This document shows, piece after piece, positions 13,694 through 28,910 of a DNA stretch of 32,000 nucleotides. The notes below the pieces were generated by a model, which was not told where the DNA came from, did not search any database, and saw nothing but the letters and a program-made list of their open reading frames with translations. A program made the position numbers and the translations under genes. The stretch is taken from positions 1 through 32,000 of the forward strand of contig NZ_NFJW01000006.1 in assembly GCF_002160065.1 (NCBI RefSeq). Reading direction: 5' to 3'. Origin of the DNA: Collinsella sp. An2 (GTDB taxonomy: Bacteria > Actinomycetota > Coriobacteriia > Coriobacteriales > Coriobacteriaceae). Position 1 is the stretch's first letter. The number at the start of each line of letters is the position of its first letter.

Positions 13694-13743
13694 ATCCCGT
13701 CATCTCCCCTCCATCTCGTCCTGACACCATGCTGCCCCCAGAA

Positions 13744-13864: not shown

Positions 13865-13910
13865 TTCCGCCCCTTGCGAATACATCGCACGCCAAAGGGA
13901 CGGCCGCCCG

Positions 13911-14882
13911 TTAACCCGACCAGACTACCACGCTGACGATGCGCACGGCTGCGAACACCAGGAACGCCAGCGCGGCAGCGGCATACATGAGTCGGTTAGC
14001 ACGGCGGATATCCTCGGGCTCTATGGGACGAAGGTCGTCTCCGATAGTGGGTTTTTCCACCATATGCCCAAAATACGACGCCGGCCCTGCCAAACGCACG
14101 GAGAGGGCACCCGCCATGGCGGCTTCGGTCTGTGCGGCGTTGGGACTTGCATGACGCCTGCGGTCGCGCCGCCAGATGCGCCAGGCACCCGCACCGGACA
14201 GCCCCGTCAGCGGGGCGGCCGCAACCAGGCAGAGCGCCGCGATGCGTGACGGCACGAAGTTCACGACGTCGTCGAGGTGCGCGGAGGCACGACCGAAGTC
14301 GATGTACCGCTCGTTTTTGTACCCCACCATGCTGTCGAGTGTGTTGACGGCCTTATACGCGGCAGCAAGGGGCGCGCCACCCACCATCATGTACAGCAGC
14401 GGTGCGACGACGCCGTCGCTCGCGTTCTCGGCCACCGTCTCGACGGCGGCGCGCACGACACCGTCCTCGTCAAGCGCCTCGGTATCGCGCCCGACGATAT
14501 ACGACACCGCTGTGCGCGCGGCAGCGAGACCTTGGTCGCGCAGAGCAGCCAACACGGCCATGCTCTGGCGCCGAAGCTCACATGCGGCGAGCAGCTGGTA
14601 GCACACCCAGGACTCAGCGATGAGACAAAGCGTCGGATGGATCGCACCGAGCGCGGCAAGGACGGCCCAGCAGATTGCAAACGAGCCAAGCGGCAATGCG
14701 ACGGCAAGCACGCGGCCGGCGGCGCGGCGTCCTGCCGCGGTGTCGGGGAACCGCGAGCGCAGACGAGGCTCCGCCCACCCGATCGCCCGTCCCATGGCGA
14801 CCACCGGATGCGGAAGCCAGCGCGGATCGCCCAGGGCGAGGTCGAGCACGGCGCCGATCGCCACGGCGGCAAGCGTCATCAT
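13911..14882 (-). CDS. cbiB: Adenosylcobinamide-phosphate synthase
   Basis: Polytopic membrane protein with LDLALGDPRWLPHPV near the N-terminus and later DTEALD, ENASDGVVAPL and VNTLDSMVGYKN motifs typical of CbiB/CobD. Start trimmed to the ATG at 14882, which overlaps the cobC stop (ATGA). Confidence 0.9.
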   Translation of the reverse strand: MMTLAAVAIGAVLDLALGDPRWLPHPVVAMGRAIGWAEPRLRSRFPDTAAGRRAAGRVLAVALPLGSFAICWAVLAALGAIHPTLCLIAESWVCYQLLAACELRRQSMAVLAALRDQGLAAARTAVSYIVGRDTEALDEDGVVRAAVETVAENASDGVVAPLLYMMVGGAPLAAAYKAVNTLDSMVGYKNERYIDFGRASAHLDDVVNFVPSRIAALCLVAAAPLTGLSGAGAWRIWRRDRRRHASPNAAQTEAAMAGALSVRLAGPASYFGHMVEKPTIGDDLRPIEPEDIRRANRLMYAAAALAFLVFAAVRIVSVVVWSG

Positions 14883-15487
14883 GCGCAGCCCCTCCCGCCG
14901 CTGCAACCCTCCTGCGAAGGAGGACAGATCACCTCGAGCCGACGCCCGTCCCCCTCGAGCTCCCAGCAGCCACCCGGCGGCGTCTCGATGGAGAAGTACT
15001 CCATCGCCGGCACGGCAAGCGACGAGATGATCGCGCGGGCGGTGCCCGCATGCGCCACGATAACGACTTGCTCAGCGCCCGCACGCCCAAGGTCGTCGAC
15101 GAGGTCAGAAAAGGCCCCGACGCAGCGGCGCGTGAAGCCCGAACGGTCCTCGCCGCCGGGACAGACGCCCCAGCAGCCACCCTCGACCCACTGGCGATAC
15201 GCGCCATCGTCGGCGAGGTCTGCAAACGCCTTGCCTTCAAAGGAGCCGAAATCCATCTCGCGCAGGCCTGGCACGGCTATCTGGCGCGCGTGGGGAAACA
15301 GAATCTGTGCGGTCTGGGCACAGCGCAGCATGCCACTGGTGTAGACCGTGCTCACGCACTCATCGACAGGCAGCATCGACAGGGCGGCGCGACCGGCCTC
15401 GGACAAGGCGACGTCGGTCCCGGCGCCCTCATAGCGTCGGGCGACGGTTCCCTCCGTGGCACCGTGCCGATAGAGCAAGATTCTCAC
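14879..15487 (-). CDS. cobC: Histidine phosphatase family protein, probable alpha-ribazole phosphatase
   Basis: RILLYRHGATEG (RHG motif) and AHAGT later. It lies inside the nucleotide-loop assembly block next to cobS/cobU/cobT. GTG start at 15487 with AAGGGGG upstream, and a GTGA overlap with the preceding stop. The function is assigned from context. Confidence 0.7.
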   Translation of the reverse strand: MRILLYRHGATEGTVARRYEGAGTDVALSEAGRAALSMLPVDECVSTVYTSGMLRCAQTAQILFPHARQIAVPGLREMDFGSFEGKAFADLADDGAYRQWVEGGCWGVCPGGEDRSGFTRRCVGAFSDLVDDLGRAGAEQVVIVAHAGTARAIISSLAVPAMEYFSIETPPGGCWELEGDGRRLEVICPPSQEGCSGGRGCA

Positions 15488-15831
15488 AAGACCCCCTTGA
15501 TTACCTGCGGCAAGCCGCACACCATGCGCACTACGGCCTCGGCGTGCTCGGCAAGCAGGCATCCCAGGCGGCCGGCGTCCTCGCGCCAGGCGCGCTCACC
15601 GGCATCGAGCGGCACCACGCCGCAGCCCACCTCGTCCATGAGCACGGCCCGCTTACCACTCAGCACCCGCGCCGCCTCCTCGGGCGAGAGCGTATGCACA
15701 AGCTGTTCGGCGTGCTCGACGGCAGGGCGCTCGTCCACGCATCCGTTCGACAAGTCTTCCGGACCAAGCCCAAGCCTCGTGCAGGCAAAAGCACGTTTGC
15801 CAGACCCCATCCCGCCCACGATCAAGATCAT
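15484..15831 (-). CDS. Short CobU-like P-loop protein (115 aa)
   Basis: The ATG at 15831 forms an ATGA overlap with the cobS stop. It has the P-loop MILIVGGMGSGKRAFA and a CobU C-terminal block (LMDEVGCGVVP...REDAGRLGCLLAEHAEAVVRMVCGLPQVIKG). It lacks the central YxAT...RIxxH segment. The 207 codons upstream in ORF 15484..16452 are out-of-frame overlap with cobS and were rejected. Confidence 0.65.
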   Translation of the reverse strand: MILIVGGMGSGKRAFACTRLGLGPEDLSNGCVDERPAVEHAEQLVHTLSPEEAARVLSGKRAVLMDEVGCGVVPLDAGERAWREDAGRLGCLLAEHAEAVVRMVCGLPQVIKGVL

Positions 15832-16604
15832 GAGATGCCTCCCAACAGCACGATCACGGCAACCATCGCGAGCTCGTCCCATTGCACGAACCATCCGGCA
15901 AGGTCCCCGGTCACACCGCCGAAGAGGCCAAATGCCATGTGCCGATACCATGCGAATCCCACAAGGCCCACCGCCACGGCGACGGCGCCGACCCAACCGC
16001 CGACACCGATGAGCAGAACCGCAAAGACGACCGCCTGCACGGTGAGCGCGCGACGGACCGACGCCGCGGCATCCGCTCCCCCGGCAAGCGAGGCGGCCAT
16101 GCCCTCGGGGCGGGCCTTTGGCCAGCAAGCGACCGCCACACCCGAAAGCGCACGGGAGAATGCGAAGAGTGGCACGAGAGCGACCGCTTGAAGCACCCCG
16201 GGCCTCCAGCTTGCAGCGAGCGAGAAAAAGAGCAGCAGGTAGCATCCGACCGCCATGACGCCGAAGGCGCCCGCGCGCGGATCCTTCATGATCTCCAGCC
16301 GGTGCGTGCGGTCCGCATAGCTGGCGAGCGCATCGGCCGTGTCGCAGAGCCCGTCCAGGTGAATGCCTCCGTTCACCACCAGGGGCATCGCGGTGAGCAC
16401 GGCCCCTTCGACCAGGGGCGGCACGCCCAGCGCGCCGGCGAGCATCGTCCACGCCGCCATGGTGAGCCCTTGAACCACGCCCACGGCCGGAAAACCTGCC
16501 AGCGCACTGCCCCCGTCCCAGTCGACACGCTCAAGAAGGGCGCGGGGCACCGGAATGCGCGAGAACACCGAAAACGCCGCAGCGACGGCATCGATCAGCT
16601 TCAT
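15828..16604 (-). CDS. cobS: Adenosylcobinamide-GDP ribazoletransferase (cobalamin synthase)
   Basis: Membrane protein with FSRIPVP, GGIHLDGLCDTADA, MKDPRAGAFG and GVTGDLAG motifs typical of CobS. The ATG at 16604 forms an ATGA overlap with the cobU stop. Confidence 0.9.
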   Translation of the reverse strand: MKLIDAVAAAFSVFSRIPVPRALLERVDWDGGSALAGFPAVGVVQGLTMAAWTMLAGALGVPPLVEGAVLTAMPLVVNGGIHLDGLCDTADALASYADRTHRLEIMKDPRAGAFGVMAVGCYLLLFFSLAASWRPGVLQAVALVPLFAFSRALSGVAVACWPKARPEGMAASLAGGADAAASVRRALTVQAVVFAVLLIGVGGWVGAVAVAVGLVGFAWYRHMAFGLFGGVTGDLAGWFVQWDELAMVAVIVLLGGIS

Positions 16605-17170
16605 CGTCCGCGCTCCCTCCACATCTCCTCGTTTCCACGCATCCAGACCGGCAGGCCCACGACGACCTCGACCACCGCGTCGGCCCGCCGTGCCAGCCGA
16701 GCGTTCACCCGCGCGATCGCGCGCTGGTAGCTGACGGTCTCGGGCGCATAGGACACGCCGTCCGAGGCGATGCTGTTCGTAACCACCACGCAGTCCTGTG
16801 CGGCCGCGGCGACGACGTCGATGCCATCGAGAACGGCCTCGACGACGCGGTCTTCCGCAAGCGTGCCTCCGCACGCGACTCCCGCCGAATCCGGTGACCA
16901 AAGCTCGTTTGCCAGCAGGTTGCCCACGTCCTCGACGAGCACGACGTCCGTGGAAGGAACCACCGCCCGCGCGAGGTCGCGCGAGCATTCGAGCAGACGG
17001 AATCCCTTGCCTCGCCTGAGCTCGCGATGCCGTGCGATCCGACGAGCAGCCTCCGTCCCGGCGGCTTCCATGGTCGCCACGTAGAGAACCGTCCCTCCGC
17101 GCGCCGTGCACAGCTCCTCCGCAAAGGCACTCTTACCGCTTGCGGCGCCGCCGATGACCAAGGCCTGCAC
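16601..17170 (-). CDS. cobU: Adenosylcobinamide kinase / adenosylcobinamide-phosphate guanylyltransferase
   Basis: P-loop VIGGAASGKSAFAE, LYVATMEAAG...RIARHRELR (the region holding the guanylyl-histidine in characterised CobU) and a C-terminal RVNARLARRADAVVEVVVGLP block. GTG start at 17170, 1 nt after the cobT stop. Confidence 0.85.
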   Translation of the reverse strand: MQALVIGGAASGKSAFAEELCTARGGTVLYVATMEAAGTEAARRIARHRELRRGKGFRLLECSRDLARAVVPSTDVVLVEDVGNLLANELWSPDSAGVACGGTLAEDRVVEAVLDGIDVVAAAAQDCVVVTNSIASDGVSYAPETVSYQRAIARVNARLARRADAVVEVVVGLPVWMRGNEEMWRERGR

Positions 17171-17171
17171 G

Positions 17172-18314
17172 CTAGCTCAGCTCCTCATAGGCGTCCAGGC
17201 CGCTCTCGTCGAACGTCGCGGCTTCGCGGTAGACCGCAAGCGCCTGGTCGAGAAGCGGCATGAGCGCGACGGCCCCCGTGCCCTCACCCAGGTGCATGCC
17301 GGCTTCGAGCGGCGCCGAGAGCCCCAGCCTTCCCAGAAGCAGACGCGCTGCAGGCTCCGACGAGCAGTGGCTGGCCAGCAGATAGTCCCGCGTGTCCGGT
17401 CGCAGTGCGGAGGCGACAGCCGCCGCCGTACACGAGATGACCCCGTCGAGCACGGCTGGGCATCGTGAGGCGGCGGCACCCAGATAAAAGCCGCACATCG
17501 CGCAGAGGTCGAGACCGCCCACCGAGGCGAGCACGCCCACCGGATCCGCAGGGTCGGGGGCGTTGACCGCAAGGGCACGGGTCACCACGGCGCGCTTCCG
17601 GCGGAGCCCCTCGTCGCTGAGGCCAGCACCGCGACCCACGGCGTCCTCGGGCGCAATGCCCAGCAACGCGCAGGCAACGGCCGCGCTTGTGGTGGTGTTG
17701 CCAATGCCCATCTCGCCGGCGGCGAGCAGGCGGGCGCCGCCCTCTGCAAGCAGACGCGCCACCGTGGCCCCCGCCAGAATCGTCGCAACGGCGCACGAGC
17801 GGCTCATGGCCGGCCCGCATGCGATGTCGGCGGTGCCGCGCACACAGGCAGCATCGTACAACCCCTCACAAGTAAGCTCGCGAGCCAGGCCGACATCGAC
17901 CGGCACGACCGCGCAGCCGGCGACGCGCGCCATGCGGCACACGCTCGCCGCACCTGCGGCCATGTTGCGCGCCGCGGTCCACGTCACGTCCTGGCCGCTT
18001 TGCGACACGCCCTCGGCGACCACGCCGTTATCGGCGATAAAGATCGCCAACGCACGAGGCTCGGACACGACATCCGGCGTGCCCTGGGCGCCCGCCATGC
18101 GCGTGACTGCCTCCTCGAGAAGCCCCAGGCCTCCGAGCGGCTTGGCGACGGAGTCCCAGCGTTCCCGCGCCACGTGCGACGCCTCCCGATCGACCGGTCG
18201 CACCACTTCGAGAAGCGCGCCGAGACGCTCCTCGAGGGCGCCGTCACCCGGCCCGGGCAATGCCGCGGCATCAAAGGCGGCGTGAAACCGTGCCTCGATA
18301 TCCTCAGCTGCCAC
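17172..18314 (-). CDS. cobT: Nicotinate-nucleotide--dimethylbenzimidazole phosphoribosyltransferase
   Basis: WDSVAKPLGGLGLLEE, FIADNGV, GEMGIGNTT and HLGEGTGA motifs typical of CobT. GTG start at 18314 with GGAAGGAGG 5 nt upstream. The longer ORF start at 18413 would overlap cbiA by 110 nt and has no SD. Confidence 0.88.
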   Translation of the reverse strand: MAAEDIEARFHAAFDAAALPGPGDGALEERLGALLEVVRPVDREASHVARERWDSVAKPLGGLGLLEEAVTRMAGAQGTPDVVSEPRALAIFIADNGVVAEGVSQSGQDVTWTAARNMAAGAASVCRMARVAGCAVVPVDVGLARELTCEGLYDAACVRGTADIACGPAMSRSCAVATILAGATVARLLAEGGARLLAAGEMGIGNTTTSAAVACALLGIAPEDAVGRGAGLSDEGLRRKRAVVTRALAVNAPDPADPVGVLASVGGLDLCAMCGFYLGAAASRCPAVLDGVISCTAAAVASALRPDTRDYLLASHCSSEPAARLLLGRLGLSAPLEAGMHLGEGTGAVALMPLLDQALAVYREAATFDESGLDAYEELS

Positions 18315-19692
18315 AGCGGCCTCCTTCCTCGCGATAGCGTGCCTGCGCCCGAACGAAGGCGCGGGCGGCGTCTGGATTCGAGGGATAGTATACGTGCGGG
18401 AAGCCGGCGGCAAGCGTCGGCGTCACGTCCATGCATGCCCAGCCCCGGTTGCGACGCGGCTTTGCCGCCCAGGCGCTGTCCCCTTCGCGCTCGGCACGCC
18501 AGTAGTGAAACTCATGACCTCGCAACACCGTGCCCGCCGGCCCATAGGGACCGGCGCACGCCATCGTGAGCTCTATATAGCCGAAATGGCCAAAGCCGCG
18601 CCCTCGGTAAGCCCCTCCGGGCAGCACCCCTGCCATGGGCCACGAGGTACCTCGGTCGTCGTCGAGGCTCTCGAGCAGGTACAGGTACCCGCCACACTCT
18701 GCGACCGTGGGCATCCCCGCCTTCACGGCTGCGCGGACGGCGGCGCGCATGCCTTCGTTGTCCGACAGCTCCTGCGCGTGGAGCTCGGGATAGCCGCCGG
18801 CAAGATAGAGCCCCGTCACACCCGCCGGCAGCTTCTCGTCGCGCAACGGGCTGAACGAAACAAGCTCCACACCCAGGTCTTCAAGCATGCGCAGGTTCTC
18901 GGCATAGCGAAAACAGAACGCCTCGTCGTCCGCCACGGCGCAACGGAGCCCCTCATAGGGCAGTCGCTCGGTTCGATAGGGAGCAGCGGTGACGGGCGCC
19001 GCGGAGCGTGCCACATCGACGAGGCGCTTGACGTCGAGTGTCTCCTCCAACACGTCCGCCATGGCATCCACCCGCCCGCGCAGGTCCTCGACCTCGTCGG
19101 CACCCACCAGACCAAGGTGGCGGCTTTCCAGCTGAAAGCGGTCGTCCTGCGGAAGGTACCCGAGCACCGGCACGCCCGTCTCGTCCTCGATGGCGCCCGC
19201 GGCATAGCGATACGCCGCCTCGGAGCAGCCGTTCAAGACCACACCGCGCACGCAGGCATCCGATCGGAAGCGGGCGAAGCCGTCGACGAGCGCGGCAAGC
19301 GACAGCGAGGCGCCGCGGGCGGATACCACCAGCACGACGGGGGTATCGGTCAGACGGGCAACGTCGTATGCGCTCGCGTCGGTCGTGCCGGGGGCCATGC
19401 CGTCGTAGAAGCCCATCGCCCCCTCGATGACGGCGATGTCGCTTCCCGCCGCCCCACGGGCCAGAAGGGCACGCAGGTCGGCCGCACTCGAAAAGAAGGC
19501 GTCGAGGTTGCCGGCGGCGACCCCGCTCACGCGGCGATGAAAGCGTTGGTCGATGTAGTCCGGTCCGCACTTGAACGCGGCGGGCCTCAGGCCCGACCGC
19601 TCGAGCAGCCGAATCAGCGCGCAGGTGAAGACGGTCTTACCCGAGGCGCTCGACGGGGCGGACACCATGAGACGTGCGGGAAGCTCGCTCAT
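18304..19692 (-). CDS. cbiA: Cobyrinate a,c-diamide synthase
   Basis: N-terminal SSASGKTVFTCALIRLL and FKCGPDYID, plus a C-terminal glutamine amidotransferase block (ECGGYLYL...GHEFHY), match CbiA/CobB. GAGGAGGAG upstream. ATGA overlap with the cbiET stop. Confidence 0.9.
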   Translation of the reverse strand: MSELPARLMVSAPSSASGKTVFTCALIRLLERSGLRPAAFKCGPDYIDQRFHRRVSGVAAGNLDAFFSSAADLRALLARGAAGSDIAVIEGAMGFYDGMAPGTTDASAYDVARLTDTPVVLVVSARGASLSLAALVDGFARFRSDACVRGVVLNGCSEAAYRYAAGAIEDETGVPVLGYLPQDDRFQLESRHLGLVGADEVEDLRGRVDAMADVLEETLDVKRLVDVARSAAPVTAAPYRTERLPYEGLRCAVADDEAFCFRYAENLRMLEDLGVELVSFSPLRDEKLPAGVTGLYLAGGYPELHAQELSDNEGMRAAVRAAVKAGMPTVAECGGYLYLLESLDDDRGTSWPMAGVLPGGAYRGRGFGHFGYIELTMACAGPYGPAGTVLRGHEFHYWRAEREGDSAWAAKPRRNRGWACMDVTPTLAAGFPHVYYPSNPDAARAFVRAQARYREEGGRCGS

Positions 19693-20939
19693 AGCTCCTC
19701 CTCCGCAACCATGCGCGCCGAGACGACGAAGACGGGATTCAGGGCGCGCATCAGGTCGTGGGAGCCGACGCGACGGGCGCGGGCCACTCCCACCTGCGAC
19801 ACCTCCATGTCGGCAAACCCGGGACCGGATAGGATCGGCAGCGCCGCCGAGAGTGTCTGAAGCGAGATACAGGTGATGCAGACGCGCGGCAGTCCCCCGC
19901 TGGCACGCACGGTGTCCAAGATCTCGGAGAGCTTCCCAGCAGACCCGCCGATAAAGACGGCGTCGGGCGCCGGCAGCCCGCGCAGGGCCTGGGGTGCCTC
20001 GCCCGCCACCACCTCGACGTTGCGCAGCCCGAAAGCGCGAACGTTGGCGTCGATGAGCTCCAGGGCCTCTGACGCCCGCTCTATTGCGAAGACCCGGCCC
20101 GCACGGGCAAGCAGCCCAAGTTCCACCGACACCGAGCCGGTCCCCGCCCCGATGTCATAGGCGATGTCGCCAGATCCGACACGCAGCTTCGCCAAAGCGA
20201 CCGCACGGACCTCCTGCTTGGTCATAGGCACCCGGCCGCGCTCAAAACACTCATCGGGAATGCCCGGGGTCACCCAGGGCCACGCGGTGCGCGACGCGTC
20301 GGCAGCGAAGTCGATGACCATAGCGTTGAGCGGAGCGAAGGAGACATTCACGAACTCGCCGGCGACGCCACGCACGATGCGCTCATCTGGATAGGAGAGC
20401 TGCTCGGCCACCGTCACGGCAGCGTCGCCGCATCCAGCCGCCACGAGCTCGCGGCAGACGGACGCGGGGCCCTCGGAGCCCCCTGTCACCAGAAAGAGCG
20501 TCCCACCGCGCGCCGCCTCGGCAGCAAGGTCGCATGCAGCGCCATGCACGCTTGCAAACCGCCAGTCCTGCCACGGCCTGCCAAGACGCGATGCCAGATA
20601 CGCCGCCGAGCTGATGCCCGGCACCGTCTCCACGGCACAATCCGCAAGCGCCGGCTCGTCCGCAAGGGCGCGCAGCACACCCGCCGCACCCGAGAAGAGC
20701 CCCGTATCTCCGCTCATGAGAACGCAAGCGCGCGACCACGTGGCGTCGCCCGCCAAAAAGGACGCGATGTCGCGAGCACGCACTGCCGCGTGCGCAGCCA
20801 CGCCGTCCGGCAGCGAAGTTCCTTCCAGCAGACGGGGCGACCCCACCGCCACGTCGCATGCACCCAGCGCCGCGCGGGCGCGCTCGGCAAGCAGGTCGGC
20901 GGCGCCAGGACCGCATCCGATTACCGTGACGCTTCTCAT
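19689..20939 (-). CDS. cbiET: Fused cobalt-precorrin-7 C5-methyltransferase / cobalt-precorrin-6B C15-methyltransferase (decarboxylating)
   Basis: The N-terminal half is a tetrapyrrole methylase (VIGCGPG...LMSGDTGLFS). The C-terminal half is a CbiT-like SAM methyltransferase (MTKQEVRAVALAKL...DIGAGTGSVSVE). 416 aa; ATGA overlaps at both ends. Confidence 0.88.
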   Translation of the reverse strand: MRSVTVIGCGPGAADLLAERARAALGACDVAVGSPRLLEGTSLPDGVAAHAAVRARDIASFLAGDATWSRACVLMSGDTGLFSGAAGVLRALADEPALADCAVETVPGISSAAYLASRLGRPWQDWRFASVHGAACDLAAEAARGGTLFLVTGGSEGPASVCRELVAAGCGDAAVTVAEQLSYPDERIVRGVAGEFVNVSFAPLNAMVIDFAADASRTAWPWVTPGIPDECFERGRVPMTKQEVRAVALAKLRVGSGDIAYDIGAGTGSVSVELGLLARAGRVFAIERASEALELIDANVRAFGLRNVEVVAGEAPQALRGLPAPDAVFIGGSAGKLSEILDTVRASGGLPRVCITCISLQTLSAALPILSGPGFADMEVSQVGVARARRVGSHDLMRALNPVFVVSARMVAEEEL

Positions 20940-21673
20940 CGGTCCAGCTCCCGATATCCACGCGGCGTGACCATGCGCCCGCCCTCCAGGCGCGTGGCGG
21001 CGTTGCCCACAAAGATTGTCGTAAACATATCGGCCTCAAACGACCCCAGCTCAGAGAGCGGCAGGGTACCGGCCTCCTCACCGTCACGACCGATGTTGCG
21101 CACCCAGCCGCACACGGTCTCGGGCGCCTTATGAGAAAGCAGCGCCTCCGCCGCGCGGGCCAGGTGGTCCCTGCGCTTCTTGCTGCGGGGGTTATACAAG
21201 CAGACGCACAGGTCTGCCCAGGCACACGCGACAAGCCGCCGCTCGATGACATCCCACGGCGTCAGAAGGTCCGAGAGCGATATGACCGCAAAGTCGTGCC
21301 CCAGCGGAGCACCGAGGCGGGCCGCGCCGCTCTGAGCCGCGGTGACGCCCGCCACGACCTCGACCTCGACCTCAGGATAGTCCGGCGCGAGCTCGAGCAC
21401 GGGCGCGGCCATGCCGTAGACGCCCGCGTCCCCGCTACAGACGAGGGCGCAGGTCGTCCCCGCATCGGCGATCTCGAGCGCACGACGGCAGCGTTCCACC
21501 TCGCGCATCATGGGCGTCGACTCGCATCGCTTACCCGCAACGAGCGGCATTACGAGCTCGAGATAGGCGTTGTAGCCTACCACGGCATCGGCTCGCTCGA
21601 GGGCGGCGCGCGCCTCGTCGGTCATGCCGTCGAGACGCCCCGGCCCGATGCCCACCACATAGAGGGTTCTCAT
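20936..21673 (-). CDS. cbiH: Cobalt-factor III (precorrin-3B) C17-methyltransferase
   Basis: LYVVGIGPGRLDGMT, VVGYNAYL, VCSGDAGVYGMA and the family-typical C-terminus (TTIFVGNAATR) match CbiH/CobJ. Confidence 0.9.
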   Translation of the reverse strand: MRTLYVVGIGPGRLDGMTDEARAALERADAVVGYNAYLELVMPLVAGKRCESTPMMREVERCRRALEIADAGTTCALVCSGDAGVYGMAAPVLELAPDYPEVEVEVVAGVTAAQSGAARLGAPLGHDFAVISLSDLLTPWDVIERRLVACAWADLCVCLYNPRSKKRRDHLARAAEALLSHKAPETVCGWVRNIGRDGEEAGTLPLSELGSFEADMFTTIFVGNAATRLEGGRMVTPRGYRELDR

Positions 21674-22680
21674 GCTTCCTCCTCAAACGAATAGGTCCAG
21701 GTTCGACATGCGAGCGCGACGGTGACGCCGTCCTGCGCGCGCTTGGGCACGATGAGCGCGCCGCCGCCTGCAAGCGCCGCGCGCTCGCACACGTTATCGA
21801 CCCCGCACACCTGCTCCACGAACGGTGACGACGAGACGCTGCCCTCGACGGAGGCGAGCTCGTCCACCCCGTAGAACGCAAGCGGCAATCCCCATGCCTC
21901 GGCCCAGCCGGCCAGACCCTCCTCGTCGCGTTTGAGCTCGATACTCGCCGCAGAGGCAACCGCCGCGCGAGGGACGCACGCCTGTGCGAGCGCGGCCTCG
22001 ACCGCGCGCCCGACCGCCGCGGCCGCGATGCCACGCCGGCATCCGACGCCGACGGTCACCGAGGGCGGCACCAGATGCAGCGCCTTCTCCTCCGCATGCA
22101 CGACAGGGGACATGATCACCTGCGCCTGGTCCCGCGCAACGACACGCTCCAAGCCGCGCGGCAGCTCGCCTTCCAGCACGCCGTCCAGATAGACCGTGAC
22201 GGCATCCCCTGCGAGCAGGCGCGCCGACACACCCTTCACGCGTCCGGGCTCAACGACGGCAAGCCCCGCGTCGTGCGCCCATCCGTCCGGGGACCACACA
22301 CCGCGCACGTCGCTCGCGGTGGTGATGACAGGGGTTGCCCCCACCGCCCGCCCAAGCTGCTCGGCCAGGCGGTTCGCCCCTCCCAGATGCCCCGAGAGCA
22401 GCGAGATGCACCAGGTTCCCCCCTCGTCCATGACCACGACGGCGGGGTCATGCGCCTTTGAGCGCACGTGCGGGGCGATGGCGCGCACGGCGATGCCCAG
22501 AGCGCCCACGAAAAGAAGTGCGTCGGCGTCGGCAAACGCCTCTGCCGTCCACGCCGCAAGCGGGCGCTTGCCCTCGCCAAAGCCGCGGGCGGCCTCACAA
22601 TCCCAGCCGTCGAGCGCACGGCACGCCCGCGACGCCAGCTTCCAGCCGCGCTCGGTAAACGCAATGGCGGCAAGTCTCAT
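21670..22680 (-). CDS. cbiG: Cobalt-precorrin-5A hydrolase
   Basis: Trimmed to the ATG at 22680 (ATGA overlap with the cbiL stop). FVGALGIAVRAIAP, DPAVVVMDE, ISLLSGHLGGAN and a C-terminal VGVGCRRG...ASIELK block match CbiG. The upstream 145 codons of ORF 21670..23115 are out-of-frame overlap with cbiL. Confidence 0.85.
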   Translation of the reverse strand: MRLAAIAFTERGWKLASRACRALDGWDCEAARGFGEGKRPLAAWTAEAFADADALLFVGALGIAVRAIAPHVRSKAHDPAVVVMDEGGTWCISLLSGHLGGANRLAEQLGRAVGATPVITTASDVRGVWSPDGWAHDAGLAVVEPGRVKGVSARLLAGDAVTVYLDGVLEGELPRGLERVVARDQAQVIMSPVVHAEEKALHLVPPSVTVGVGCRRGIAAAAVGRAVEAALAQACVPRAAVASAASIELKRDEEGLAGWAEAWGLPLAFYGVDELASVEGSVSSSPFVEQVCGVDNVCERAALAGGGALIVPKRAQDGVTVALACRTWTYSFEEEA

Positions 22681-23369
22681 GGACGTATCACCAGCGTCGT
22701 GAAGTACGAGCCCTTGTCGGGTGCTTCGTCCAGGTTGCGCACGACAAGCTCCCCCGGCATGCCGCAGTCGGCCACAAGCGACACTCGCTCGTACACCCCG
22801 GCCTCGGCAAGGTCGCGCTTGAGTTCGCCGAGATGCGCCCCGGCCTTCATGACCACCTTGGTGCCCGGCATGGCGAGCGCGTCCGACAGCCCGGCTGCGC
22901 GGGCGGGAACGATATGGAGCGGCTCGCGCTCGGACGGCGTGAGGTCTGCGTCTAGACGAGCCGCCACCGCGCAGAAGCTCGGCACGCCGGGCACGGCATG
23001 CGTCTCGAACCCGGCCGCGCGAACAAGACCGGCGACGCGCTGGAAGGTGGCATAGATGCTCGGATCGCCCAGGTTGAGCAGGGCCACATCGCTGCCCGAG
23101 CCAAGCAGCTCGCAAAGCTCCGCCGCCGCACGCTCGTAGCCCCGGTCCCGTTCGGCGGCGTCCCTGCTCATGGAAAACGACAGCCGGACGATACGCTTAT
23201 CGGCAAGGTCGACGGCCTGGCGCACGATGTCGAGCGCAAGCGTTCCGCCGCCCGACGTCATGGGCGCCGCCACGACGGGGCACGATTGGATGGTGCGCAC
23301 CGCCTTGAAGGTGATGAGCTCAGGGTCTCCCGGCCCCACGCCCACGCCATACAGGATGCCCTTACGCAT
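22677..23369 (-). CDS. cbiL: Cobalt-factor II (precorrin-2) C20-methyltransferase
   Basis: LYGVGVGPGDPELITFKA, LNLGDPSIYATF and PGVPSFCA are tetrapyrrole methylase motifs. Size and position match CbiL/CobI. Confidence 0.88.
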   Translation of the reverse strand: MRKGILYGVGVGPGDPELITFKAVRTIQSCPVVAAPMTSGGGTLALDIVRQAVDLADKRIVRLSFSMSRDAAERDRGYERAAAELCELLGSGSDVALLNLGDPSIYATFQRVAGLVRAAGFETHAVPGVPSFCAVAARLDADLTPSEREPLHIVPARAAGLSDALAMPGTKVVMKAGAHLGELKRDLAEAGVYERVSLVADCGMPGELVVRNLDEAPDKGSYFTTLVIRP

Positions 23370-24522
23370 GATCTCTCCTCATCCGAGCAAGCAGCTCGTC
23401 CACCCCATCGGTGCGGAAGAGCTCGCCGCGCACGTTGCTGAACACAATCGCCGCCACCGTACAGGGTGGTGCCCCATCGGCGCGCGCACGCTCCGCGCGA
23501 TACGCCAGCCTTCGACCAAGGGCCCGGGCAAGGCTCTGCGACACGGGGGCAAGCAGCCCCGCGTCCGCAATCGCGTCGAGCGCGGCGTCGGTGGTCGGCG
23601 ACTCCATGATGGCCCGCGCTACGTCGACCCCAGCGCCCGCAAGGGCAGCGTGGGCCGTCAGCGTCTCAAGCCGGGTGTCGGCTACCTGCGAATGCGTATC
23701 CATGACGCCGGCGGCGACCTTGACCATCTTGCCGATATGCCCGACCACCAGGACGCCCTCGGCCCCCGCATGCACGGCGGCGTCGAGGGCGGCCCCAATA
23801 AAGTTGGAGCATACCACCATCGGAACATCGAGGCGGGGCAAGCTCCGCTCGATATAGGCCTCGCCATAGTTGCCGGGGGTCACCAGCAGATCGCGCGCAC
23901 CGGCGGCAATCGCCTGCGAGACTTCGAGCTCGACGCTGCGGCGCAGGGCGTCAAGGCTGCGCGGCTCGACGATACCGGTGGTCCCCAGAATCGATATGCC
24001 CCCGCGAATGCCGAGGCGCGGGTTGAAGGTCCGCTCGGCGATGCGCTCCCCCTCGGGCGCGGACACCGTGAGCGCAACACCTCCTTCATAGCCGCAAGCT
24101 GCGCAGACCTCCCGTACCGCGGCGGCGATCTGGGCGCGGGGCACAGAGTTTATGGCGGCCTCGCCCACCGGCTGCTCAAGCCCCGGCTGGGTGACGCGCC
24201 CTATACCCTCGCCGCCATCGATCGCAATGCCGTCCCGCGAACGACGCGCCTCGACGTAGATGAGCATGCCGTCGGTCGCGTCCACGTCGTCGCCGCCATC
24301 CTTGCGCACCGCGCAACGCGCAACGCCCGAGGCGACGGTGGAATCGAGCACCTCGGCCTCGACGACGACCCCTCCCGGCGTGGTCACCCATGCCCGCGGA
24401 GGGACGGCGCCGCGCAACAGGCCTGTGCAGGCAGCCTGCGCAGCCAGGGCGGCGCAGGTTCCCGTTGTGTATCCGCAGCGAAGCCTCCGGTTGCCCGACC
24501 AGCGGTACAAATCGAGCGCCAT
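23362..24522 (-). CDS. cbiD: Cobalt-precorrin-5B C1-methyltransferase
   Basis: Trimmed to the ATG at 24522 (MALDLYRWSGNRRLRCGYTTGTCAAL). GISILGTTGIVEP and VGHIGKMVKVAAG are CbiD hallmarks. Confidence 0.9.
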   Translation of the reverse strand: MALDLYRWSGNRRLRCGYTTGTCAALAAQAACTGLLRGAVPPRAWVTTPGGVVVEAEVLDSTVASGVARCAVRKDGGDDVDATDGMLIYVEARRSRDGIAIDGGEGIGRVTQPGLEQPVGEAAINSVPRAQIAAAVREVCAACGYEGGVALTVSAPEGERIAERTFNPRLGIRGGISILGTTGIVEPRSLDALRRSVELEVSQAIAAGARDLLVTPGNYGEAYIERSLPRLDVPMVVCSNFIGAALDAAVHAGAEGVLVVGHIGKMVKVAAGVMDTHSQVADTRLETLTAHAALAGAGVDVARAIMESPTTDAALDAIADAGLLAPVSQSLARALGRRLAYRAERARADGAPPCTVAAIVFSNVRGELFRTDGVDELLARMRRDHA

Positions 24523-24526
24523 GGCC

Positions 24527-25351
24527 TTACGCCTCGCAGCCCGGACTTGCAGACGAAGGTTCGCGCGGCTCGCCGTCGACGTGGGCGTCGGCACCTGCGT
24601 CGTGCGCCGGGCGGAACAGCGTCGCAAACCCGGGGTCGTACAGGCGGCTGCGCTCGTAGGATGCGTCGAGCACACGCCCCACCACGACGAGGGCGGTCAG
24701 GCGGATGCCGTGCTCCTTGCCCGTCTTCGCAAGCGTTCCCACCTGGCAGCGCAGGACGACCTCGTCGGGCCAGGTCGCCTTGTAGACGATCGCCGCCGGT
24801 TCCCGCTCGCTGCGGCCCGCGGCGAGCAGCTCTTCCTGCAGCCGTTCAAGATGCCCCGCGCTCAAAAAGATCACGAGCGTAGAACCATGGGCGGCCAAGC
24901 TCCGCATGTCTTCCCCTGCAGGCATGGGGGTACGCCCTGCCAGGCGCGTGAGCATGACCGTCTGGCTGATTCCCGGCAGGGTCAACTCCTGCTCCAATGC
25001 GGCCGCCGCGCCGCAGAAGCTCGACACGCCGGGGACCACGTCGAAGGGGATACCGCGCTCGCGCAGAGCGTCCATCTGTTCCTGGATCGCGCCGTAGACG
25101 CTTGGGTCGCCCGTGTGCAGGCGCACCACCTCAAGGCCGTCCCGCTCGGCGCGCTCCATGGCATCGAGAACCTCTTCGAGCGTCATGCGGGCGCTGTCGA
25201 GGATCTCGCAGTCCTCGCGACAGACCTTCAGCAGCTCGGGATTCACCAGGCTGCCCGCCCATATCACCATGTCGGCACGGCGCAGCAGCGCGTCCCCGCG
25301 CAACGTGATGAGGTCGGGCGCGCCGGGGCCGGCACCCACGAAATGCACCAT
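24527..25351 (-). CDS. cbiF: Cobalt-precorrin-4 C11-methyltransferase
   Basis: VHFVGAGPGAPDLITLRG, LHTGDPSVYGAI and PGVSSFCGAAA match CbiF/CobM. I chose the ATG at 25351 (GAAGGGAG 8 nt upstream). In-frame alternatives at 25372 and 25408 lack an SD. First gene of the 17-gene operon. Confidence 0.9.
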   Translation of the reverse strand: MVHFVGAGPGAPDLITLRGDALLRRADMVIWAGSLVNPELLKVCREDCEILDSARMTLEEVLDAMERAERDGLEVVRLHTGDPSVYGAIQEQMDALRERGIPFDVVPGVSSFCGAAAALEQELTLPGISQTVMLTRLAGRTPMPAGEDMRSLAAHGSTLVIFLSAGHLERLQEELLAAGRSEREPAAIVYKATWPDEVVLRCQVGTLAKTGKEHGIRLTALVVVGRVLDASYERSRLYDPGFATLFRPAHDAGADAHVDGEPREPSSASPGCEA

Positions 25352-25519
25352 AGGGGTCGCTCCCTTCGTCATGGCGGCGCCCGTCCGGCCGGGCGCGTGT
25401 GGGAGCATTGTAGCGCACGGCCACCCATGTCCGCCGCCGACGGACCTGCTGCGGATTCCTTGCGCACATTTAGCCTGCAGCCCCGCTCCGTGAGACGCGC
25501 GGGGCGCGACGCGTTAAGA

Positions 25520-25700
25520 TGGGGCGGTGCCGCTTCTCAGCGGGGCGGCCGACATATGAACCAGGAGACGGCCGGCGCTCGTACCGCCGGGTCATCAAAG
25601 GGAATCAGGTGCGAATCCTGAGCAAGGGCCATTACTGTGTGCGCGGCCTCACCGCGCGAGCCAGACTGCTTTGCCGTCCCCTCTCGGCCCTCGAGGCCGT
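25520..25700 (+). promoter_or_regulatory. Cobalamin (B12) riboswitch-like aptamer
   Basis: The core GGGAATCAGGTGCGAATCCTGAGC (25600-25623) matches the conserved GGGAA-N3-GGTG-N-AA-TCC-N3-GC element. ACTGT follows at 25634-25638, then a short hairpin GTGCGCGG/CCGCGCG, then a B12-box-like GAGCCAGACTGC (25658-25669). A hairpin CCGGCG/CGCCGG precedes the core. The CCCGC element is divergent (GGGCC). The boundaries are approximate. Confidence 0.6.
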
Positions 25701-25783: not shown

Positions 25784-25813
25784 GCGCTCTCCGACCGGTC
25801 GAAGAGCGTTTTT
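25784..25813 (+). terminator. Intrinsic terminator, probable riboswitch expression platform
   Basis: CGCTCTCCGA/TCGAAGAGCG stem with one mismatch, followed by TTTTT (25809-25813). It lies ~110 nt after the aptamer core and 76 nt before the ATG at 25889. Confidence 0.55.
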
Positions 25814-25888
25814 CGTATGCGCGAGACGTCCCGTGAGCCCGTGCGACCGCACGGGCGGACCCCATACGCACAAAGAAAGGACGAAGCC

Positions 25889-26812
25889 ATGGCCAAAACC
25901 AGCATGACTCGCAGAAACCTGGTGAAAGGAGCGACGGTGGCAGGCGTCGGAGCCGCCGCCGCGATGCTCGCCGGCTGCGCCAACGACGCCGCACAGACGG
26001 CCGCGCAGGCCGCCGTCAAGCCCGTCATCCTCGTAACGAGCTTTGGCACGAGCTATGCCTCGAGCCGTCACAGCACGATCGGGGCGATCGAGTCGGCGAT
26101 CCGCGAACGCTTCCAGCCCACGTATGACGTGCGACGCGCGTTCACCTCTGACACCATCATCGACATCCTCAAAGAGCGCGACGGCATCTCCATCGACAAC
26201 GTCGACGAGGCGATCTCCCGCTGCATCGACGACGGGGTGCGCACCCTGGTGGTCCAGCCCACGCATCTCATGGAGGGCTACGAGTACACCGACCTCGCCG
26301 ACGCGCTCGAGAAGGTGCGCGACAGCTTTGACGACGTGGTGCTCGGACGGCCGCTTCTCGACACGCAGGAGGACCTCGACGCCGTCGCCGACGCGCTGAC
26401 CGAGGAACTCGCCGACTACGACGACGGATCGTGCGCGCTCGTCCTCATGGGGCACGGCACCGAATCCGACGCGAACGGTGTCTACGCCGCCCTGCAGAAG
26501 ACCTTCGACGCCCGCGGGCAGCACCAGTTCTTCGTGGGCACGGTTGAGGCCGAACCCACCTGCGACGACGTGATCCGCGCGGTGACCGAGGCCGGCTATA
26601 CGCGCGCCGCGCTCTCCCCGCTCATGGTCGTCGCCGGCGACCATGCAACCAACGACATGGCTGACCGAAACGACCCCGAGTCCTGGGTCTCGCGCTTCGA
26701 GGCGGCTGGCATCGAGACCACCTGCATCCTCGCCGGCCTGGGTCAGTACGCCGGCATCGATTCAATCTACGTCGACCACGTCTCGGCTGCCATCGACAGC
26801 CTGAAAGGATAG
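25889..26812 (+). CDS. cbiK: Sirohydrochlorin cobaltochelatase CbiK homologue with Tat-type lipoprotein signal peptide
   Basis: The mature part aligns along its length with CbiK (ILVTSFGTSY, RRAFTS, VQPTHLMEGYEY, LMGHGT, PLMVVAGDHATNDM). The N-terminus MAKTSMTRRNLVKGATVAGVGAAAAMLAGC has a twin-arginine motif (TRRNLVK), a hydrophobic core and a lipobox (LAGC). An alternative in-frame ATG lies at 25964. Confidence 0.88.
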   Translation: MAKTSMTRRNLVKGATVAGVGAAAAMLAGCANDAAQTAAQAAVKPVILVTSFGTSYASSRHSTIGAIESAIRERFQPTYDVRRAFTSDTIIDILKERDGISIDNVDEAISRCIDDGVRTLVVQPTHLMEGYEYTDLADALEKVRDSFDDVVLGRPLLDTQEDLDAVADALTEELADYDDGSCALVLMGHGTESDANGVYAALQKTFDARGQHQFFVGTVEAEPTCDDVIRAVTEAGYTRAALSPLMVVAGDHATNDMADRNDPESWVSRFEAAGIETTCILAGLGQYAGIDSIYVDHVSAAIDSLKG

Positions 26813-26818
26813 GTATTC

Positions 26819-27352
26819 ATGAAGCTCACCTACGGCGCGTGCGCGCTCACCCTTATCGTCGCTCTTTCCGGCTGCAGCGCTCAGCCAGCAGCGACAAACG
26901 GTTCCGCGCCGGCGGCCACAGGCTCCGCTGTCGTATCCACAGGCTCCACGGACGCGTCCTCCAGCGAAAAGACGACGCCCATCACGGCCGACATGCTCGT
27001 GCCGGGGTCCTATGAGATCGACGTCGACTCGAGCTCCAGCATGTTCCGCATCGTCGCAGCGACGCTCGACGTGACGAACGACGGCATGACCTGCACCATG
27101 ACGCTTTCGGGCACCGGCTACGAGAAGCTCTATATGGGCACGGGCGAGCAGGCCGCCGCAGCCCCGGATGAGGACTGCTCGTACTTCGTCGAGGGCGCCG
27201 ACGGCTCCTACTCCTACACCGTCGCGGTTCCCGCCCTGGACAGCGACGTCGATTGCGCGGCGTTCAGCATCCGCAAGCAGAAGTGGTACGACCGCGTGCT
27301 CGTGTTCCGCTCCGACAGCCTGCCGGCAGACGCCTTCGCAGCCAACGCCTAA
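26819..27352 (+). CDS. Small lipoprotein, unknown function (domain shared with the next gene)
   Basis: MKLTYGACALTLIVALSGC is a signal peptide with a lipobox. An S/T/A-rich linker is followed by a ~110-aa domain. AAGGA lies 9 nt upstream. The gene starts 6 nt after the cbiK stop. Confidence 0.7.
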   Translation: MKLTYGACALTLIVALSGCSAQPAATNGSAPAATGSAVVSTGSTDASSSEKTTPITADMLVPGSYEIDVDSSSSMFRIVAATLDVTNDGMTCTMTLSGTGYEKLYMGTGEQAAAAPDEDCSYFVEGADGSYSYTVAVPALDSDVDCAAFSIRKQKWYDRVLVFRSDSLPADAFAANA

Positions 27353-27371
27353 TCGAAAAACGAGGATCCCC

Positions 27372-28910
27372 ATGATGCGCGCCTCCACGACTAGAGCCCC
27401 CTTTGCACGCCTCGCATGCGTCGCGCTGCTGGTGCTCGCCTTGCTGACAGCCGTCGGATGCACCTCGGCGCCTACAGCCGACGGTACGCCCGCCGATGGC
27501 TCCTACCAGGTATCGCTTGAGCTTGAGGGCGGCTCCGGCAGGGCGACGGTCGAAAGCCCTGCCGAGGCGCGTGTGGAGGATGGGCGCATCACGCTTGAAG
27601 TCGTGTGGTCGAGCTCGAACTATGACCTCATGGTCGTAGACGGCGTCGAATACGCGCCCACCTCGACCGAGGACGGCTCGACCTTCGAGATCGCCGTGCC
27701 CGCGCTCGAAGGCAACGTGGCGGTCGAGGCGCGGACCACCGCCATGGGCGACCCGCACCTCATCTCCTACACCCTGCACCTTGGCGATGCTGGCGACGAA
27801 AACCAAGGTGCCTCTACGGCAAGCGATGGGGACGCGATCCTGGTCGCCGACTACCACAATCCCGATCTGGGCTGTGGATGGGCGCCTGTCTCGTCGCTTG
27901 ACCTCTCACACGCGAAGAACTTCACAGTCGATGACTACGAGGGCGGCTATCGGCTCATCTGCATTGCCGATGGCAGCAGGTACCTGCTCGTTCCCGAGGG
28001 CAAGCAGGCTCCGGAGGGCCTTGCCTCGGACATCCGCGTCGTCGCGCAGCCGGCAGACCAGGTCTATCTGGTGTCGTCGGCCGTGGCGTGTCTTGTGGAT
28101 AAGATCGATGCGCTCGACCATGTGGCCGCGACCTCGGTAACCCCTCAGACCTGCTCGGTCGAGCGCCTGAAGGACGCCATCGAAGACGGGTCCATCCCCT
28201 ATGCGGGCCGCTACAACACCCCCGACTACGAGGTCATCACCGAAGCCGGCTGCACGCTCGCCGTCGAGAACACCATGATCTACCACACGCCCGAGGTTCG
28301 CGAAAAGCTTGAAGACCTGGGAGTCACCGTCCTCACCGAGCTCTCGAGCCGCGAGACCGAGGTCCTGGGACGGCTGGAGTGGGTCAAGCTATTCGGCGTG
28401 CTCTTCGGACGCGAAAGCGAGGCGACGAGCTTCTTCAACGAGGCTTGCGAGCGCATCGAGCAGGTCTCGGCGGACGAGCCGAGTGGCAAGACGGTGGCGT
28501 TTTTCTACATCAACTCCAACGGAGCGGCCGTGACCCGGCGCTCGAACGACTACGTATCGCAGATGATCGAGCTCGCCGGCGGCACGTACCTCTTCTCGGA
28601 CCTCCCCGGCGATGACGGGACCTCGTCCTCCACCGTCACGGTCGAGATGGAACAGTTCTATGCCATGGCCCGCGATGCCGACATCATCATCTACAACGGC
28701 ACGACCGACGACAGCATTGACGCCATCGACGACCTCGTGGCCAAAAACCCGCTGCTCGCACAGTTCCGCGCCGTACAGAACGGCCAGGTGTGGATCTGCA
28801 ACCGCAACATGTACCAGCAGATGGCAGACTCGGCCGACATCATCGAAGAGCTTCACGCCATCGTCTCCGGCAACGCGGGGCAGCTTGCCTACTTCCGCAA
28901 GATCTCGTAG
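27372..28910 (+). CDS. Lipoprotein: N-terminal unknown domain fused to a FecB/BtuF-type (cluster A, PF01497-like) ABC substrate-binding domain
   Basis: Trimmed to the ATG at 27372 (GAGGA upstream). The signal/lipobox is ALLTAVGC. Residues ~40-135 resemble the preceding lipoprotein. The C-terminal ~330 aa have the periplasmic-binding-protein pattern (RVVAQPADQVYLVSS..., LEDLGVTVLTELSSRETEVLGRLEWVKLFGVLFGRESEA). Confidence 0.8.
   Translation: MMRASTTRAPFARLACVALLVLALLTAVGCTSAPTADGTPADGSYQVSLELEGGSGRATVESPAEARVEDGRITLEVVWSSSNYDLMVVDGVEYAPTSTEDGSTFEIAVPALEGNVAVEARTTAMGDPHLISYTLHLGDAGDENQGASTASDGDAILVADYHNPDLGCGWAPVSSLDLSHAKNFTVDDYEGGYRLICIADGSRYLLVPEGKQAPEGLASDIRVVAQPADQVYLVSSAVACLVDKIDALDHVAATSVTPQTCSVERLKDAIEDGSIPYAGRYNTPDYEVITEAGCTLAVENTMIYHTPEVREKLEDLGVTVLTELSSRETEVLGRLEWVKLFGVLFGRESEATSFFNEACERIEQVSADEPSGKTVAFFYINSNGAAVTRRSNDYVSQMIELAGGTYLFSDLPGDDGTSSSTVTVEMEQFYAMARDADIIIYNGTTDDSIDAIDDLVAKNPLLAQFRAVQNGQVWICNRNMYQQMADSADIIEELHAIVSGNAGQLAYFRKIS

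Follow-up and report, generated by a model that had tools for sequence, protein, structure and literature searches.

A CbiK homologue with an export signal, the sole recognizable cobaltochelatase of Collinsella sp. An2, and its riboswitch-linked module with NEAT-like partners

Exported CbiK homologues and the Collinsella locus

CbiK-family proteins that carry export signals have been described before. We report here on one that is encoded in a 32,000-nucleotide stretch of the Collinsella sp. An2 genome (RefSeq assembly GCF_002160065.1, contig NZ_NFJW01000006.1, positions 1 to 32,000 of the forward strand; hereafter the window), where cbiK occupies 25889..26812 on the + strand. The assembly (G000 among the genomes compared below) is 2.54 Mb long and 99.87% complete, and the contig that holds the window is designated C43. 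In Desulfovibrio vulgaris, according to the accounts that cite the original reports, an exported CbiK-family protein, CbiK(P), exists beside a cytoplasmic CbiK(C) (Lobo et al. 2008; Romao et al. 2011, as cited), and in Desulfovibrio cbiK shares a vitamin B12 riboswitch with cbiL and a btuCDF-type ATP-binding cassette (ABC) transporter (Rodionov et al. 2004, PMC545781). Porphyromonas gingivalis encodes the CbiK-like lipoprotein FetB, also called IhtB, beside an ABC transporter and has cbi genes but no precorrin-2 synthesis, a situation that has been called, in a report known to us as cited elsewhere, the 'enigma of cobalamin biosynthesis' (Roper et al. 2000, as cited). FetB is the best-scoring chelatase homologue found in that genome and acts in vitro as a chelatase for Co and Mn (PMC13065792). 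Within Collinsella itself, C. aerofaciens, C. tanakaei and Collinsella sp. 4_8_47FAA are classed as 'precorrin-2' salvagers (Shelton et al. 2019, PMC6461909, supplementary file 11), and C. aerofaciens requires B12 despite its cbi genes (Rodionov et al. 2019, PMC6593275). Exported CbiK homologues, the riboswitch-cbiK-cbiL-btuCDF arrangement of Desulfovibrio, the P. gingivalis 'enigma' and the predicted precorrin-2 auxotrophy of Collinsella are therefore prior knowledge. In the literature that we searched we found no Gram-positive exported-CbiK module with NEAT-like partners, no report of a near-obligate association of such a module with the corrin pathway or of an exported CbiK as the sole chelatase in most of its carriers, and no proposal of extracellular chelation. 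Many gut bacteria with a 'complete' B12 pathway still need B12 or an unknown precursor, a problem raised for P. gingivalis in 2000 and extended in 2018-2019 to Collinsella and many Firmicutes, and the locus described here names a likely entry gate: a conserved module of riboswitch, exported CbiK, NEAT-like receptors and ABC importer.

The 307-residue product of the Collinsella gene is an exported-type class II sirohydrochlorin cobaltochelatase homologue with its catalytic domain at residues 44-303. Pfam CbiK (PF06180) matches residues 47-302 with 255.4 bits (cut-off 26.2), and the NCBIfam CbiK equivalog NF047852 gives 208.3 bits, below its cut-off of 400. The best match among solved structures is Salmonella enterica CbiK (1qgo, E = 5e-42), followed by P. 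gingivalis FetB (9b86, E = 2e-38) and D. vulgaris CbiK(P) (2xvx, E = 1e-30). We found SFGTSY at residues 51-56, MEGYEYTD at 128-135, LMGHGT with His189, GTVE with Glu220 and AGDHATNDM with His252; the chelatase motifs LMGHGT, AGDHATNDM and MEGYEY, which a preliminary description of the locus had listed, are thus all present in the translation. His189, Glu220 and His252 are conserved and are the alignment partners of MGHG, VE and GDHA in 1qgo, in which His145, Glu175 and His207 (S. enterica numbering) are the metal-binding and catalytic set. Among 120 homologues, 108 keep all four motifs, and the His/Glu/His set is strictly kept. Judged by its sequence, the gene product is a CbiK-family protein with its catalytic residues intact, and cobalt insertion into sirohydrochlorin is its predicted activity.

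With S. enterica CbiK the protein shares the fold family and the His/Glu/His set, but the S. enterica enzyme is cytoplasmic, signal-less and part of a de novo pathway, and the NCBIfam equivalog cut-off for it is not reached here. With D. vulgaris CbiK(P) it shares an export signal, the retained cobalt-binding residues and a context of B12 riboswitch and ABC transporter. D. vulgaris, however, has CbiK(C) in its cytoplasm and produces the precursors itself, whereas here the exported CbiK stands alone; CbiK(P) belongs to a different clade, and its haem ligand His96, which holds haem between the subunits, aligns with Thr134. Unlike D. vulgaris, moreover, this organism is monoderm, its CbiK is predicted to be lipid-anchored, and the partner proteins are NEAT-like. 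FetB, for its part, sits in the outer membrane of a diderm with a TonB-dependent receptor as partner and without NEAT-like partners, is discussed for haem, iron and Mn-protoporphyrin IX rather than for B12, and falls outside the Gram-positive exported clade.

Conservation of the export signal and the missing early pathway

The N-terminal 30 residues of CbiK (MAKTSMTRRNLVKGATVAGVGAAAAMLAGC; 25889..25978, + strand) read as a twin-arginine lipoprotein signal, in which TRRNLVK (residues 7-13) is followed by a hydrophobic stretch (14-26) and the lipobox LAGC (27-30), of which Cys30 is predicted to be lipidated. Pfam TAT_signal gives a weak match over residues 5-25 (15.3 bits, the cut-off being 22.7; E = 0.019), and TatC, a component of the twin-arginine translocation (Tat) system, is encoded at C42:96801-97424 (180 bits). 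Among the 61 related genomes that we sampled, three kinds of CbiK-domain protein can be told apart. The orthologues, found in G003, G020, G023, G032, G050 and G059, are 56-68% identical to the protein of G000, and all six carry an RR signal in which the motif is followed by a lipobox or an AxA cleavage site. The CbiKs of other families of the order are 31-39% identical and have no signal, as do longer CbiK-like proteins from open frames of 290-518 codons (~30-34% identity) in G001, G003, G005, G007, G008, G010, G012 and G029, among which cbiD occurs in G003 alone. When we examined the 120 closest database homologues, of which 117 could be scored, ~112 had a Tat and/or lipobox signal, several Firmicutes-looking ones being of the Sec type (MKKK...LAGC). 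Across orthologues and homologues an export signal is kept even where Sec has taken the place of Tat and an AxA site that of the lipobox. A lipoprotein or Tat signal is likewise found in 29/30 CbiK N-termini from genomes with the module described below, the exception being a second, signal-less copy in G072.

In a phylogenetic tree the exported CbiKs form one clade (SH-aLRT 99) with Sec-lipoprotein Firmicutes forms at its base, and neither the signal-less CbiKs nor S. enterica CbiK, FetB or CbiK(P) belong to it. Because the exported forms make up a single clade and kept their signals though the signal type changed, export is ancestral to this CbiK subfamily. Natural fusions that join signal, CbiK and the NEAT-like domain A in one chain are seen in seven homologues of 446-453 residues and in one partial protein. 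In the window, domain A belongs to a separate protein with its own Sec-type lipoprotein signal (see below); its fusion to CbiK therefore puts the catalytic domain, too, outside the cytoplasm, in the compartment of domain A. Many of the Firmicutes versions (L135, L137, L140, L143, L145, L146, L147, of the Lachnospiraceae type) have a conserved acidic motif, ENYDTGDAS.D..RN.D.IG, between lipobox and CbiK domain that is absent from the Coriobacteriaceae proteins.

A Shine-Dalgarno-like AAAGGA lies at 25876..25881 (+ strand), 7 nt 5' of the first ATG, and a similar purine-rich block precedes the first ATG in most orthologous loci, that of G050 being the weakest. The preliminary description had recognized the Tat lipoprotein signal, and its reading agrees with the conservation among orthologues and homologues and with the presence of TatC. 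It had also considered that the signal might not be used, which is contradicted by the signals of the six orthologues and of ~112/117 homologues, by the Shine-Dalgarno sequence before the first ATG and by the fusions to an exported domain. Its third suggestion was a signal-less isoform from an internal start at the in-frame ATG of M26 (25964..25966, + strand). That ATG is present with GGAG 11 nt upstream (25949-25952), but a methionine at or near position 26 is conserved in none of the 6 orthologues or 117 scored homologues; the alignment of N-termini that it recommended shows conservation of the signal and not of M26.

We searched the whole genome for a second chelatase. One PF06180 match and one PF01903 match were obtained, both corresponding to cbiK at 25889..26812, and neither a second CbiK or CbiX nor CobN was found. 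The remark in the preliminary description that there is no other chelatase in the neighbouring biosynthetic operon thus holds for the operon and for the genome, and since the search that it called for returned a single locus, the paradox of an exported enzyme for a step placed in the cytoplasm is sharper than was stated. The operon is divergent from cbiK (9668..25408, - strand) and, by Pfam and NCBIfam assignment, contains cbiF, cbiD, cbiL, cbiG, cbiH, cbiET, cbiA, cobT, cobU, cobS, cobC, cbiB, cobD, cbiP, cbiC and cbiJ, that is, 16 assignable biosynthetic genes rather than the 17 counted before, with no chelatase and no uroporphyrinogen III methyltransferase (SUMT). CbiF, CbiL and CbiH pass their equivalog cut-offs.

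The early pathway is missing as well. Neither G000 nor four relatives that share the locus (G003, which its protein names mark as Collinsella tanakaei, G020, G032 and G050) encode HemB, HemC or HemD. G000 has five TP_methylase matches, four of them to CbiF, CbiL, CbiH and CbiE of the operon; because the only one outside the operon is RsmI (TIGR00096, 216 bits), the genome has no SUMT. With hemB, hemC, hemD and SUMT lacking, the first cytoplasmic pathway enzyme encoded is therefore CbiL, and the genome is predicted to be unable to make the substrate of its chelatase.

One of the possibilities raised in the preliminary description was that a cytoplasmic chelatase is encoded elsewhere and that the exported protein has an extracytoplasmic role. 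The second half is the reading that survives; for the first half the genome-wide search offers one remote candidate, a 157-residue SirC-like protein at C46:37471-37944 that matches the CysG N-terminal domain with 87 bits. It covers positions 1-138 of the 205-position model. Since it has the length of a dehydrogenase-only SirC and is missing from G020, G032 and G050, it is unlikely to be the general answer, and we rejected it as the missing chelatase. We also rejected the long CbiK-like proteins of related genomes, as G000 has none and their hosts other than G003 lack cbiD.

Several neighbouring observations concern tetrapyrrole metabolism. Beside the SirC-like gene lies one for an 863-residue protein (C46:34546-37137) that by eye resembles a fusion of a pyridine-nucleotide-disulfide oxidoreductase with a 4Fe-4S/sirohaem module of the sulfite-reductase kind, suggesting a need for sirohaem in a genome without SUMT, HemB, HemC, HemD or SirB. 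Despite the absence of HemB, HemC and HemD, a ferrochelatase HemH is encoded at C44:46538-47554 (269 bits); the adjoining gene (45176-46480 on C44) encodes a Tat-type lipoprotein that by eye resembles a member of glycoside hydrolase family 3. Open frames of 430-518 codons for CbiK/SirB-like proteins (~113-142 bits) occur at L016 (G008), L025 (G003), L015 (G005), L017 (G012), L018 (G029), L020 (G007) and L021 (G001), and the Coriobacteriaceae genomes that have them, G003 excepted, lack cbiD and HemB. The 451-residue protein of G003 is a SirB-like/SirC fusion, with the SirC NAD_binding_7 domain downstream in the same frame.

The NEAT-like partners, the transporter and the riboswitch

Two lipoprotein genes follow cbiK. 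The first (26819..27352, + strand) encodes a Sec-type lipoprotein of 177 residues (MKLTYGACALTLIVALSGC) with domain A, a NEAT-like beta-sandwich, at ~residues 55-170. The second (27372..28910, + strand) encodes a lipoprotein of 512 residues in which the NEAT-like domain B (~residues 42-140) precedes a Peripla_BP_2 domain at residues 234-476 (PF01497, 112 bits); its best NCBIfam match, a weak one, is the haem-binding IsdE. No Pfam family matches the 177-residue protein or the N-terminal 230 residues of the larger one, and Pfam NEAT (PF05031) has no match among the proteins of the window even at E <= 10. A few homologues show a precomputed or faint PF05031 match. When the two binding proteins were compared by sequence with solved structures, the outcome was a weak match to Listeria Lmo2184 or nothing. 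AlphaFold2 models of the domains were compared by Foldseek. The model of the 177-residue protein has a predicted local distance difference test score (pLDDT) of 83 overall and >90 over domain A, for which 16 of the top 17 structural matches (E ~1e-2, template modelling (TM) score normalised to the target <=0.66) are NEAT domains and the remaining one is the haem-transfer protein Shp, IsdX1, Shp, IsdH and IsdA being the top ones. The model of residues 1-233 of the larger protein has a pLDDT >90 over domain B, and its top 50 matches are all NEAT domains, the best being IsdC with haem (E = 1e-5, TM 0.64). Both domains are accordingly modelled as NEAT-like folds. NEAT domains typically bind haem, and a YxxxY motif on their last strand supplies the haem-iron ligand. 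This motif is missing here: domain B has a conserved H129-x3-Y133, and domain A has WYDR..L.F.

The only FecCD permease in the genome and its ATPase are encoded at C43:56594-58992, 28 kb downstream of the cbiK operon; the permease is most similar to BtuC and the ATPase to a corrinoid ABC ATPase. In G020, G032 and G050 the operon continues directly into the FecCD and ATPase genes. Beside the permease and ATPase (block C43:55293-58992; L039:3294-6992) lies a second binding-protein paralogue, 54% identical, without a NEAT-like domain and with an RR-like lipoprotein signal; no riboswitch was detected ahead of this block. In the Isd relay of Gram-positive bacteria, NEAT receptors pass haem to the binding protein IsdE and the permease IsdF. 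The Collinsella module resembles it in the succession of surface-anchored NEAT-fold domains, Peripla_BP_2 lipoprotein and FecCD-type ABC importer. It differs from the Isd relay in having no Pfam NEAT match and no YxxxY, a B12 riboswitch instead of iron control, a chelatase within the module, and lipoprotein anchoring instead of sortase.

The leader of the cbiK operon contains a cobalamin riboswitch aptamer at 25552..25692 (+ strand), where RF00174 matches over its full model length (1-189) with a sub-threshold score of 24.0 bits against a gathering cut-off of 31.5 (E = 4e-4). The GGGAA..GGTG..AATCC core and the B12 box stand at the same position 5' of cbiK in 6 related loci; read by eye, stem positions vary among the leaders with pairing preserved. 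The G003 leader scores 27.6 bits, and two Firmicutes module leaders exceed the threshold (57.2 and 43 bits). Taken together, the leaders indicate that the module is under the control of a B12 riboswitch and not of iron. The sequence GTGAACCCCGGAGG at 25714-25730, 3' of the aptamer, recurs in the G003 and G032 leaders, with partial conservation in those of G050, G020 and G023, and may be part of the expression platform. We found no riboswitch for the minus-strand cobamide operon. A regular-expression screen of the genome gave three more riboswitch-like cores (C1, C15 and C45), none of which was confirmed by Rfam.

To survey the module, one genome per species was scanned with an alignment of domain A, and the best 80 loci were inspected. 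The module occurs in at least 563 species. In the inspected loci cbiK lies directly 5' of domain A in 78/80, and a Peripla_BP_2 gene (73/80), an FecCD permease (71/80) and an ATPase (67/80) are nearby; a riboswitch core was recognized by regular expression in 57/80, and cbi genes lie within 8 kb in at least 27/80. The module is often found within or beside a cbi operon, with cbiL directly after the transporter genes at several loci, and in some loci the order is riboswitch, substrate-binding protein, permease, ATPase, cbiK and NEAT-like gene, followed by cbiL or by cbiC, cbiF and others. One Firmicutes module has a gene of the PNPOx/Pyridox_ox_2 family, which includes HugZ-like haem-degrading enzymes, between the NEAT-like and binding-protein genes (L043:12696-13211).

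The association with the corrin pathway is close. We found cbiD in 30/30 and 47/50 module genomes (77/80, 96%). In family f1 of the Coriobacteriales sample, cbiD is confined to the 5 genomes with exported cbiK, and none of the 31 genomes without cbiD has the module. A single CbiK is present in 28/30 module genomes, and a separate CbiX in 0/30. HemB is present in 10/30 and lacking in the other 20; a SirC-like gene accompanies all 10 HemB-positive genomes and 6 of the 20 HemB-negative ones, leaving 14/30 with neither. In the Coriobacteriales sample HemB occurs in 0/7 genomes with exported-type CbiK vs 4/5 with signal-less CbiK. CbiM is absent from G000 and from 23/30 module genomes; among cbiD-positive Coriobacteriales it occurs in 4/11 without the module vs 2/6 with it, so that this cobalt transporter does not tell the two groups apart. 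A tblastn search of G000 gave neither EutB nor EutC.

A proposed route for cobalt insertion and its alternatives

We tentatively propose, giving it a little under an even chance, that a Tat-exported, lipid-anchored CbiK on the outer face of the membrane inserts cobalt into a scavenged sirohydrochlorin-type tetrapyrrole and that the product is imported for CbiL. CbiK would be exported by Tat, anchored by its lipid to the outer face of the cytoplasmic membrane and active there. The two NEAT-like domains would capture a sirohydrochlorin-type tetrapyrrole at the cell surface from neighbouring microbes or the host, an external source being expected because the genome appears unable to make the compound. 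Surface CbiK would then insert Co2+ into the captured tetrapyrrole, and cobalt-sirohydrochlorin would be handed to the substrate-binding domain for import by the BtuCD-like permease and ATPase (C43:56.6-59.0 kb). The imported product would join the cytoplasmic pathway at CbiL, and the B12 riboswitch would switch the module off when cobamide suffices. Of the readings considered it is the simplest that accommodates the single chelatase locus, the missing early genes, the ancestral export signal, the CbiK-domain A fusions, partner proteins of tetrapyrrole-handling types, the kept catalytic residues, the riboswitch and the co-occurrence with cbiD, which go together with the scarcity of a second CbiK, of CbiX and of HemB in other module genomes.

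A number of observations weigh against this proposal. Its main weakness is that 10/30 module genomes have HemB together with a SirC/CysG-B-like gene, yet mostly have the exported CbiK only. Such genomes would make sirohydrochlorin inside the cell and would have to chelate it there by other means, so that the exported CbiK need not be the chelatase of the pathway. The cytoplasmic SirC-like protein of G000 hints at a pool of imported precorrin-2 inside the cell, and G039, which lacks HemB and has a signal-less CbiK, indicates that salvage does not require an exported enzyme. We know of no documented supply of sirohydrochlorin or precorrin-2 in the environment, and both compounds are labile. Corrinoid importers, furthermore, are the classical targets of B12 riboswitches, and our genome counts come from related genomes that are not phylogenetically independent.

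The last but one of these points leads to a different explanation, in which the module takes up corrinoids (cobamide or cobinamide) or tetrapyrroles in general and the exported CbiK binds its ligand at the surface or passes it on, a role that has been proposed for CbiK(P). Cobalt would then be inserted in the cytoplasm by a CysG-B/SirC-like or unrecognised chelatase, or the pathway would be idle without imported late intermediates. Besides the riboswitches that usually precede corrinoid transporters, this explanation draws on the similarity of the permease and ATPase to BtuC and a corrinoid ABC ATPase, on the HemB-positive module genomes, each with a SirC/CysG-B-like gene and most without a further CbiK, and on the exported CbiK homologues known to bind metalloporphyrins, D. 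vulgaris CbiK(P) and FetB (PMC13065792). We nevertheless consider it unlikely. A pure corrinoid importer would be most useful to bacteria without cbi genes, yet cbiD accompanies the module in 77/80 genomes and none of the 31 cbiD-less genomes of family f1 has it; the catalytic His/Glu/His set is strictly kept; 14/30 module genomes, and also G020, G032 and G050, have no SirC-like candidate; and the haem ligand His96 of CbiK(P) is replaced by Thr134.

The same gene could alternatively supply an active cytoplasmic CbiK, either from an internal start (M26 in this strain) or as a Tat precursor that folds before export, and this enzyme would chelate imported sirohydrochlorin or precorrin-2 inside the cell. 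Tat substrates do fold in the cytoplasm before export, M26 has its GGAG at a distance of 11 nt, the SirC-like precorrin-2 dehydrogenase of G000 would yield sirohydrochlorin inside, and the genome has no other chelatase. Such a dual localisation seems improbable to us, as no internal methionine is conserved among orthologues or homologues, the conserved Shine-Dalgarno sequence stands before the first ATG, the basal members of the clade use Sec-type signals and so would have no folded cytoplasmic stage, and the fusion of the catalytic domain to an extracytoplasmic NEAT-like domain in some homologues speaks for its working outside. Acquisition of haem or iron, with the exported chelatase removing or exchanging the metal of metalloporphyrins from host or diet and the link to B12 being incidental, is suggested by the CbiK-like lipoprotein IhtB/FetB, encoded in an operon with an ABC transporter in P. 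gingivalis (PMC12094164), by the NEAT-like folds of the partners, which are typically haem-binding, and by the presence of HemH where HemB, HemC and HemD are absent. We judge this very improbable: a cobalamin riboswitch controls the module both in Coriobacteriaceae and in Firmicutes, cbiD accompanies it in 96% of genomes, the YxxxY haem-ligand motif is absent with HxxxY in its place in domain B, and FetB showed no dechelatase activity in vitro (PMC13065792).

Extended to the other carriers of the module, the proposal of surface chelation would be that a large group of gut Coriobacteriaceae and Firmicutes carry out the first committed step of anaerobic B12 synthesis, the insertion of cobalt, beyond the cytoplasmic membrane, on sirohydrochlorin that is either scavenged or released by the cell itself. 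NEAT-like receptors and the ABC importer would take in the product for CbiL, and the tetrapyrrole would be both a salvaged precursor and a carrier for cobalt uptake. We hold this broader version to be possible, with somewhat less than even confidence. It predicts chelation at the cell surface and import of a cobalt-loaded tetrapyrrole. If it is true, this would be one of the rare instances in which a biosynthetic step is placed outside the cell, sirohydrochlorin would be a metabolite exchanged in gut communities, and the genome-based prediction of B12 producers would change.

The G+C content is 67.7% over 9668-28910, which spans the cbi operon and the cbiK module, compared with 64.2% and 62.1% in the flanks. 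This block of ~19 kb is variably present within the genus, since G001 and G002, the other two genomes of the genus, have neither cbiD nor an exported cbiK.

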